From the NCBI RefSeq assembly GCF_055900595.2, contig NZ_CM148325.1: DNA of 64,000 nucleotides; one strand, written 5' to 3'. Shown here in pieces: positions 1,454 through 2,401 of this stretch (positions within the stretch are counted from its first letter, which is position 1; the number at the start of each line of letters is the position of its first letter). Below the pieces are notes generated by a model. That model saw nothing but the letters and a program-made list of their open reading frames with translations. It made no database searches and had not been told where the DNA came from. The translations under genes were made by a program, and so were the position numbers.

Positions 1454-2401
1454 GTGGCACAACGAGATTATGTACGCCGCAGCCAACCGGCACCTTCGCG
1501 GCGAAAAAAAAGCACCTCACGGAAAAAGCAACGAAATCTGCCTGCGGTTTCTCCCGCAATGGTCGCTATTGCTGCCGCCGTTCTTGTGACCTTTATCGGT
1601 GGTCTGTACTTCATTACGCATCACAAGAAAGAAGAGTCCGAGACGCTGCAAAGCCAGAAAGTGACCGGAAACGGATTACCACCGAAACCAGAAGAACGCT
1701 GGCGCTACATTAAAGAGCTGGAAAGTCGCCAGCCGGGTGTGCGTGCACCAACAGAACCGTCTGCCGGTGGTGAAGTGAAAACGCCGGAGCAACTGACACC
1801 AGAACAACGTCAGCTTCTTGAACAAATGCAGGCCGATATGCGCCAGCAGCCAACGCAGCTGGTTGAAGTTCCGTGGAATGAACAGACGCCGGAACAGCGT
1901 CAGCAAACGCTTCAACGTCAGGCACAACAGCGTCAGATTCAGGCGGCTCAACAGCAGCAGCGTCAGGCTGAGCAGGCATATCAACAACCGCGTACCACGC
2001 AAGCGCAGCAACCACCGCGCCAGACGCAGCAGACTCGCCAGGCGGCTCAGCAGCCGTACCAGGATCTCCTGCAAACGCCAGCACACACTGCCGCGGCGCA
2101 GCCGAAGTCACAGCAAGTCGCGCCTGTTAGCCGGGCCGCTGACGCGCCAAAACAGACGGCGGAGAAAAAAGACGAGCGGCGCTGGATGGTACAGTGCGGT
2201 TCGTTCCGAGGCGCGGAACAGGCAGAGACGGTACGTGCTCAGCTGGCGTTCGAAGGCTTTGACTCGAAAATTACCACCAACAATGGCTGGAATCGTGTGG
2301 TGATTGGCCCGATTAAAGGGAAAGAAAATGCCGACGGCACCCTGAATCGCCTGAAGATGGCGGGTCATACAAACTGTATTCGACTCGCTACCGGGGGTTG
2401 A
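1454..2401 (+). CDS. ftsN: Cell division protein FtsN (bitopic; Q-rich linker; C-terminal SPOR domain)
   Basis: MAQRDYVRRSQPAPSRRKKSTSRKKQRNLPAV..., one TM helix, Gln/Pro-rich repeats, C-terminal WMVQCGSFRGAEQAETVRAQLAFEGF SPOR motif. Confidence 0.93.
   Translation: MAQRDYVRRSQPAPSRRKKSTSRKKQRNLPAVSPAMVAIAAAVLVTFIGGLYFITHHKKEESETLQSQKVTGNGLPPKPEERWRYIKELESRQPGVRAPTEPSAGGEVKTPEQLTPEQRQLLEQMQADMRQQPTQLVEVPWNEQTPEQRQQTLQRQAQQRQIQAAQQQQRQAEQAYQQPRTTQAQQPPRQTQQTRQAAQQPYQDLLQTPAHTAAAQPKSQQVAPVSRAADAPKQTAEKKDERRWMVQCGSFRGAEQAETVRAQLAFEGFDSKITTNNGWNRVVIGPIKGKENADGTLNRLKMAGHTNCIRLATGG

Follow-up and report, generated by a model that had tools for sequence, protein, structure and literature searches.

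In the window analysed here, a stretch of 64,000 nucleotides from contig NZ_CM148325.1 (assembly GCF_055900595.2), the second half of the cell-division gene ftsN has very probably been replaced by an Escherichia fergusonii-type version through homologous recombination, which would have given rise to an allele typical of Escherichia cryptic clade I. The donor would have been E. fergusonii or a close relative, and the recipient an ancestor of clade I. Such a replacement would leave codons 1-152 and everything outside the gene E. coli-type, positions 1912-2135 and 2272-2395 E. fergusonii-type, and positions 2136-2271, between the two, E. coli-like. Later recombination with ordinary E. coli alleles may have trimmed the tract unequally among clade I strains, and part of the sequence may have returned into E. 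fergusonii. The gene itself is known; the new detail is its E. coli/E. fergusonii mosaic origin and its value as a marker of cryptic clade I. A literature search on FtsN and fergusonii found no description of the mosaic allele.

The ftsN locus

The window begins in the spacer between priA and cytR on an Escherichia chromosome, and the genes that follow, cytR (331-1362), ftsN (1454-2401), hslV (2494-3024), hslU (3034-4365) and menA (4420-5358), are ordered as in K-12, with ftsN between cytR and hslVU in both. In the list of open reading frames, ftsN occupies positions 1454-2401 of the + strand, with a GTG start and 315 codons plus the stop. An NCBIfam profile search matched the protein to two FtsN equivalog families, NF008179 over residues 1-315 (640.3 bits against a cutoff of 525) and TIGR02223 (345.3 bits against a cutoff of 107.65), and the Pfam SPOR domain PF05036 was found at residues 242-309 (65.8 bits against a cutoff of 21). 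Every FtsN family feature tested was present, i.e., the equivalog match, the N-terminal parts, the Gln-rich linker, the SPOR domain and the chromosomal position. Additionally, the gene is 100% identical to the annotated ftsN of NZ_CP098223.1 (WP_032304230.1) and of seven further complete genomes. The 315-aa FtsN is an ordinary, intact, RefSeq-annotated cell-division gene.

The earlier note had given the length of this reading frame as 315 aa and that of K-12 FtsN as 319 aa; both figures are right, since K-12 ftsN (b3933, NP_418368.1) measures 960 bp, equal to 319 aa. In a large protein collection, the gene is mostly called from Met36 (window position 1559; 280 aa) and not from the GTG at 1454 (315 aa), and E. 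fergusonii ftsN is called there from an ATG at codon 29 (286 aa). Because start calls differ between that collection and RefSeq, lengths from the two are not comparable.

Divergence from K-12 ftsN

The window allele is the same gene as K-12 ftsN, in the same chromosomal position and with the same architecture. In a BLASTP alignment of the two proteins, 281 of 322 columns are identities and 10 are gap columns; the first 156 residues are the same in both, and the differences are confined to residues 157-313. The window protein is a net 4 residues shorter, and the sequence of its distal linker cannot be aligned with that of K-12. The pairwise alignment is not one of identical sequences, and the suggestion that the block rich in Gln, Arg and Ala differs from K-12 is thereby borne out.

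In the DNA, the 3' 480 bp of the gene stand out as a divergent block with sharp bounds, 1912-2390, which starts in the distal linker, ends where the SPOR domain ends and is approximately 12-30% diverged from K-12, as against approximately 1-2% in the flanks. Over the 5.9 kb compared, the flanks showed approximately 0-8 mismatches per 100 bp, typically 0-4, whereas 1912-2395 contained 97 mismatches and 30 gap columns, and 1901-2400 contained 84 mismatches and 48 gap columns. In steps of 100 bp, we counted 31 mismatches and 30 gap columns in 1901-2000, 22 mismatches and 18 gap columns in 2001-2100, 14 mismatches in 2101-2200, 2 mismatches in 2201-2300 and 15 mismatches in 2301-2400. This clustering of differences is far beyond chance. 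On the 5' side, positions 1800-1911 carry the K-12 sequence save for one base (1834), and the differences set in abruptly at 1912. On the 3' side, positions 2402-2493, downstream of the stop codon, match K-12 at every base and depart at 8 sites from most E. fergusonii sequences. The earlier note had placed the variable region at 1800-2110, which covers the real feature only partly: its portion from 1912 to 2110 is indeed variable, whereas 1800-1911 is K-12-like and the divergence continues for approximately 280 bp past 2110, into the SPOR domain, as far as 2390.

Mosaic structure of the allele

Informative sites were defined as the positions at which K-12 and the main E. fergusonii allele (locus L092) differ, and the mosaic was read from the patterns that these sites form in about 20 sequences. 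In the window, the E. fergusonii-like state is present at 20 of 342 informative sites in 1-1911, 58 of 60 in 1912-2135, 0 of 21 in 2136-2271, 16 of 18 in 2272-2395 and 32 of 182 in 2396-5400. Taken together, the two E. fergusonii-type segments have 74 of 78 sites in that state versus 52 of 545 elsewhere (Fisher p = 4e-56); in the flanks alone, the count is 52 of 524. All parts described below are given on the + strand.

The E. coli-type 5' part (1454-1911, codons 1-152) extends from the cytoplasmic tail through the membrane span and helices H1-H3, with the essential region Leu75-Gln93, into the proximal linker. It differs from K-12 in 9 synonymous and 0 non-synonymous codons, the encoded protein being identical, and within 1454-1880 there are 9 mismatches against K-12 versus 51 against E. 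fergusonii. The 5' crossover interval can be placed at 1892-1911, bounded by an E. coli-type informative site at 1891 and an E. fergusonii-type one at 1912.

The first E. fergusonii-type segment (1912-2135) comprises the distal Gln-rich linker and a SPOR-proximal stretch; compared with the main E. fergusonii allele, it has 8 mismatches and a 3-bp indel, and compared with K-12, 78 mismatches and 18 gap columns. The window shares with FtsN proteins named E. fergusonii a 44-residue linker, AQQRQIQAAQQQQRQAEQAYQQPRT(T/A)QAQQPPRQTQQTRQAAQQ. Tandem Repeats Finder reported in this segment an imperfect 24-bp tandem unit in 2.0 copies (1921-1968; 79% matches, score 61) that encodes QQRQIQAA / QQQQRQAE.

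The central patch of the SPOR domain (2136-2271) is E. coli-like. Its identity is 95.7% to K-12 and 100% to E. fergusonii locus L098; it is approximately 18% off the main E. fergusonii haplotype, and it constitutes a distinct haplotype in which 6 of 140 positions differ from K-12. The E. fergusonii type resumes in the 3' end of the SPOR domain (2272-2395), of which positions 2276-2395 share 98.3-100% identity with every E. fergusonii locus and 87.5% with K-12. The 3' crossover interval spans the last codons, the stop codon and the start of the intergenic region (2391-2443), with the last E. fergusonii-type site at 2390 and an E. coli-type site at 2444. Both crossover intervals are short stretches that are near-identical in E. 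coli and E. fergusonii.

Runs of 15, 7 and 8 informative sites with the E. fergusonii base were also seen in hslU (3111-3657), in menA (4581-4608) and in the priA-cytR spacer (163-188), respectively. These runs could represent more small exchanges or K-12-specific variants.

E. fergusonii as the probable source of the block

The lead to the source came from the protein database, in which we found FtsN proteins that pair the 44-residue alternative linker with a non-E. coli N-terminal half (EVINPDQLT, NMPAV). The contigs of those proteins were taken for comparison (L092-L095). The CytR, PriA and MenA proteins of L092 are exact matches to NCBI proteins named E. fergusonii, and a 314-aa member of its FtsN cluster bears the same species name. 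The FtsN proteins P0181, P0183, P0185, P0187 and P0202 are likewise named E. fergusonii. As a second protein search showed, E. fergusonii normally has the alternative linker; the commonest form of FtsN in that species, P0182 (314 aa), was found on 214 contigs, and P0187 (315 aa) on 23.

The divergent segments of the window are 96-99% identical to E. fergusonii ftsN, and the whole block reaches 99% in some E. fergusonii genomes. Over 1912-2395, the window shows 5 mismatches against each of L096 and L097, 7 against L098, and 9 plus 3 gap columns (a 3-bp indel) against L094. The main E. fergusonii haplotype (L092, L093 and L095) differs at 36 bases, most of which fall in its divergent central patch. 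None of the sampled E. fergusonii sequences is identical to the window block, the main haplotype being approximately 3.6% off in the linker segment and approximately 18% off in the patch.

Compared as proteins, P0182 and P0187 have both the 44-residue linker and the SPOR C-terminus (I, G and T variants) of the window. They differ in the N-terminal half, with EVINPDQLT where the window has EVKTPEQLT and NMPAV where it has NLPAV; the 5' half of the window gene is approximately 88% identical to that of E. fergusonii, i.e., some 12% diverged in DNA. The main E. fergusonii haplotype is further distinguished by its divergent central SPOR patch, by one Ala codon fewer and by flanking DNA of the E. 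fergusonii type.

Other candidate donors were rejected. In Citrobacter, Salmonella, Enterobacter, E. albertii, E. whittamii, Escherichia sp. E1V33 and MOD1-EC7003, the SPOR part is just 80-88% identical to that of the window, and the linker is either of the K-12 type (in the Escherichia species, namely E. albertii, E. whittamii, E1V33 and MOD1-EC7003) or yielded only short fragment matches. The best matches to the SPOR part in this species comparison were those of E. coli (90%) and E. albertii (88%). A scan with one genome per species, in which the block was used as a protein query, yielded 80 Enterobacteriaceae loci, none of them above 90% over the whole block; it returned neither an E. fergusonii nor an E. 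coli representative, and taken alone it wrongly implied that there is no known donor. The central patch of the main E. fergusonii haplotype was likewise considered as an import from another sampled species, and its best match was 89.6% (Citrobacter amalonaticus). This patch is approximately 16% from K-12, a distance that agrees with the remainder of the E. fergusonii gene; for this reason, and because no other sampled species has a close match, we take it as native to E. fergusonii.

Two side observations concern the E. fergusonii contig. Its cytR (L092:8798-9823) has approximately 77-78% DNA identity to E. coli cytR, and the nearby hslV and hslU have 95-98%, which makes cytR an exceptionally diverged gene among otherwise close neighbours. 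A TIGR02117/DUF2459 gene lies between yiiX and rpmE at L092:5351-5974; K-12 does not have it, and some E. coli have exact protein matches to it.

Probable direction of transfer

Transfer from E. fergusonii or a close relative into the lineage of the window is the most economical reading because the block is an island in the window and fits its neighbours in E. fergusonii, and because the linker is of the K-12 type in the four other Escherichia compared. The divergence of the E. fergusonii block from K-12 (14-30%) is in keeping with that of its neighbours, approximately 12% in the 5' half of ftsN and approximately 22% in cytR, whereas the neighbours of the block in the window are diverged by approximately 1-2%.

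Part of the traffic nevertheless appears to have run the other way. The E. fergusonii loci L096 (GCA_020034675.1) and L097 (GCA_051334215.1) are E. coli/clade I-type at the equivalents of window positions 2143-2266 and 2396 to approximately 2850 (into hslV), and L094 and L098 carry a central patch of the window type. The pattern of L096 and L097 indicates gene flow into E. fergusonii in the reverse direction, and the similarity of these two loci to the window block could itself be the product of flow from clade I into E. fergusonii. With flow in both directions, the exact donor haplotype therefore cannot be fixed. In view of tract ends that vary among clade I strains and of the clade I or E. 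coli-type segments in some E. fergusonii, one might go further and suppose that clade I and E. fergusonii have exchanged the 3' half of ftsN repeatedly and in both directions, maybe driven by selection on the linker-SPOR module and not by neutral hitch-hiking. We consider this doubtful; if true, selection could act, e.g., on the reach or the tightness of FtsN tethering to septal glycans, and the locus would also yield a single-locus diagnostic for clade I.

A different history, to which we give a small probability, is that an unsampled third lineage gave the block to both clade I and E. fergusonii, or that an old polymorphism was sorted differently among the lineages. The distance of 2-4% or so between the window block and the main E. 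fergusonii haplotype, together with its identity to no sampled E. fergusonii, would agree with this, as would the distinct haplotype of the central patch and the outcome of the species scan, in which no representative exceeded 90% over the block (that of E. fergusonii not being among the returns). However, all sequences with an E. fergusonii-type N-terminal half have the alternative linker or a deletion derivative of it, and the E. fergusonii block is as far from K-12 as its neighbours would predict. An old sorted polymorphism, in particular, fits poorly with 96-99% identity in the block when the 5' half of ftsN, next to it, is approximately 12% diverged.

Less probable still is that the alternative block was born in clade I and spread from there to E. 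fergusonii. The E. coli-type patch and downstream tract of L096 and L097, and the clade I-type patch of L094 and L098, do speak for some flow into E. fergusonii. Against an origin in clade I, the alternative linker is common in E. fergusonii, including L092, L093 and L095, which have E. fergusonii-type flanks on both sides; the clade I block is an island of 12-30% divergence in flanks of 1-2%; and the other Escherichia species have the K-12-type linker.

Repeat content and the slippage reading

The earlier note had described the region as built of repeated CAG/CAA-rich units and had proposed slippage or recombination there. Its codon content is as described, CAG or CAA making up 37 of the 103 codons in 1800-2110, and Gln accounts for 38% of residues 129-221, a linker of similar length to that of K-12 and of different sequence. 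True repeats are weak and two-copy only: the single 24-bp unit in 2.0 copies with 79% match, plus two imperfect two-copy direct repeats. Of the two proposed processes, recombination stands, in the form of the E. fergusonii-type block, and slippage does not.

That slippage or unequal exchange among CAG/CAA-rich units shortened FtsN by 4 residues is scarcely credible: the linker is Gln-rich with a weak tandem unit, and real repeat expansions and in-frame deletions do occur in the linker of rare alleles elsewhere, but the window linker differs from K-12 by dense substitutions (61 mismatches and 15 gap columns in 136 bp), the repeats found are just imperfect pairs, the divergence extends for approximately 290 bp through the non-repetitive SPOR domain, where it is mostly synonymous, and the whole block is 96-99% identical to the allele of another species. 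As the cause of the 315 versus 319 aa, slippage was rejected, the K-12 linker not being reachable by gain or loss of units alone. In the SPOR part, the codon differences from K-12 are 18 synonymous and 9 non-synonymous (18 of 27 synonymous). Dense mismatches in the linker and mostly synonymous divergence in the SPOR part therefore point to a stretch of foreign homologous DNA.

Length changes of the kind that slippage produces are found in other alleles. A 331-aa variant of the clade I type (P0200) contains QQRQIQAA three times, which is the Tandem Repeats Finder unit at 1921-1968; slippage can therefore act at this point, and the difference from K-12 is left unexplained by it. A K-12-type protein of 341 aa contains RTTEQSWQQQT three times, a Shigella FtsN of 349 aa has a 30-residue duplication in the linker, and linker deletions of 25 and 34 residues occur in rare alleles, the 25-residue deletion in P0048 (named E. 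coli O127:H6) being present on 89 contigs. Variants such as P0200, P0210, P0204, P0048 and P0099 resemble the window allele in having an in-frame length change in the same region of FtsN. They differ from it in that they are whole-unit changes from a parent allele, whereas the window allele shows substitutions over 480 bp. Overall, rare in-frame linker changes were noted in ten proteins from E. coli, Shigella and E. fergusonii (the five just named and P0107, P0062, P0087, P0202 and P0203), comprising expansions by units of 8, 11 and 30 residues and deletions of 8 to 34 residues.

Carriers of the block and cryptic clade I

A search of 5,426 complete genomes that bear the label E. coli found the block, at 95% identity or more, in 18; the non-carriers match in the SPOR part only, at no more than 89%. 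When positions 1-25000 of the window were compared, the 18 carriers were exactly the 18 best-matching genomes, 8 of them at 100% and 10 at 98.7-99.0%, with all others at or below 97.3%. Positions 38001-63000 recovered the same 8 near-identical genomes at 99.9-100%, followed by the next full-coverage genomes at 95.8%; this agrees with a deep lineage, although the other ten carriers are not placed by this region. Two of the carriers, EC42405 and 2013C-4282, are published complete genomes of Escherichia cryptic clade I (PMC10100065). This clade is a sister lineage of E. coli sensu stricto whose members are labelled E. coli in databases, with a genome identity of more than 98.3% within the clade and more than 95.9% to E. 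coli sensu stricto (PMC10100065). Based on the similarity of the window genome to the 18 carriers and on the two published strains among them, the window genome would belong to clade I and the 315-aa allele would be a clade I trait.

All ten carriers that were fetched have the 1912-2135 segment, and the ends of the tract vary among them. At the 5' end, most carriers other than the window have non-K-12 bases at 1849, 1858, 1870 and 1873, those at 1858 and 1873 being the E. fergusonii base; the window, L002 and L087 have none of the four, and L084 has three of them. This suggests that the foreign tract may begin further 5' in the carriers with these variants than it does in the window. Further along the gene, L083, L084, L085 and L087 agree with K-12 at those sites of the central patch that set the window apart from it, and L083, L084 and L086 (L085 in part) have K-12-type sequence in 2302-2390. 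The variable ends fit a single ancient import that recombination with ordinary E. coli alleles then eroded; more than one import would be the alternative.

The linker block at 1912-2135 was present in 18 of 18 clade I-like complete genomes and in 0 of 5,407 other matching genomes. Its sequence could be used as a simple marker of cryptic clade I, whose members routine typing mistakes for E. coli. The idea of a useful strain marker thus holds as to the marker and needs correction as to its level, which is that of a deep lineage, probably cryptic clade I (18 of 5,426 genomes), and not of a strain.

The search of E. coli genomes also returned two ftsN matches on plasmid-class records, and four genomes have 90-95% whole-gene identity to the window ftsN with the block absent.

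Functional considerations

FtsN has been mapped into domains that include an essential periplasmic region, Leu75-Gln93 (PMC7939390). This region, the cytoplasmic tail and the membrane span are the same in the window protein and in K-12 FtsN. Residues 238-315, compared with the K-12 structure (PDB 1UTA), have 3 substitutions in 78 positions, and both cysteines are kept. The linker has been described as a long, largely disordered tether (bioRxiv 10.1101/2024.05.13.594014). With a linker of this kind and so few changes in the SPOR domain, the swap is probably functionally neutral, as the earlier note had supposed. On this evidence, the FtsN linker would accept large-scale replacement of its sequence, in agreement with the part of flexible tether that has been proposed for it.

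The allele offers a clean, small case of recombination between Escherichia species in an essential division gene; its practical value is modest, and no new system or mechanism is involved.

The penicillin-binding-protein genes of Neisseria and Streptococcus are mosaics that result from interspecies homologous recombination. The window ftsN resembles them in its sharp-edged foreign blocks within a native essential gene and in breakpoints that vary by strain. It differs in that the swap bears no sign of a selected phenotype and in that the exchange affected a disordered tether and a binding domain that hardly changed.

Elsewhere in the window, approximately 1 kb between rraA and zapB (5935-6953) has no counterpart in K-12, where the gap between the two genes is approximately 90 bp. 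This stretch contains a 238-aa open reading frame (6195-6911) with no match in a Pfam search; its product has predicted hydrophobic N-terminal stretches and is annotated in NZ_CP098223.1 as the hypothetical protein WP_123057342.1.
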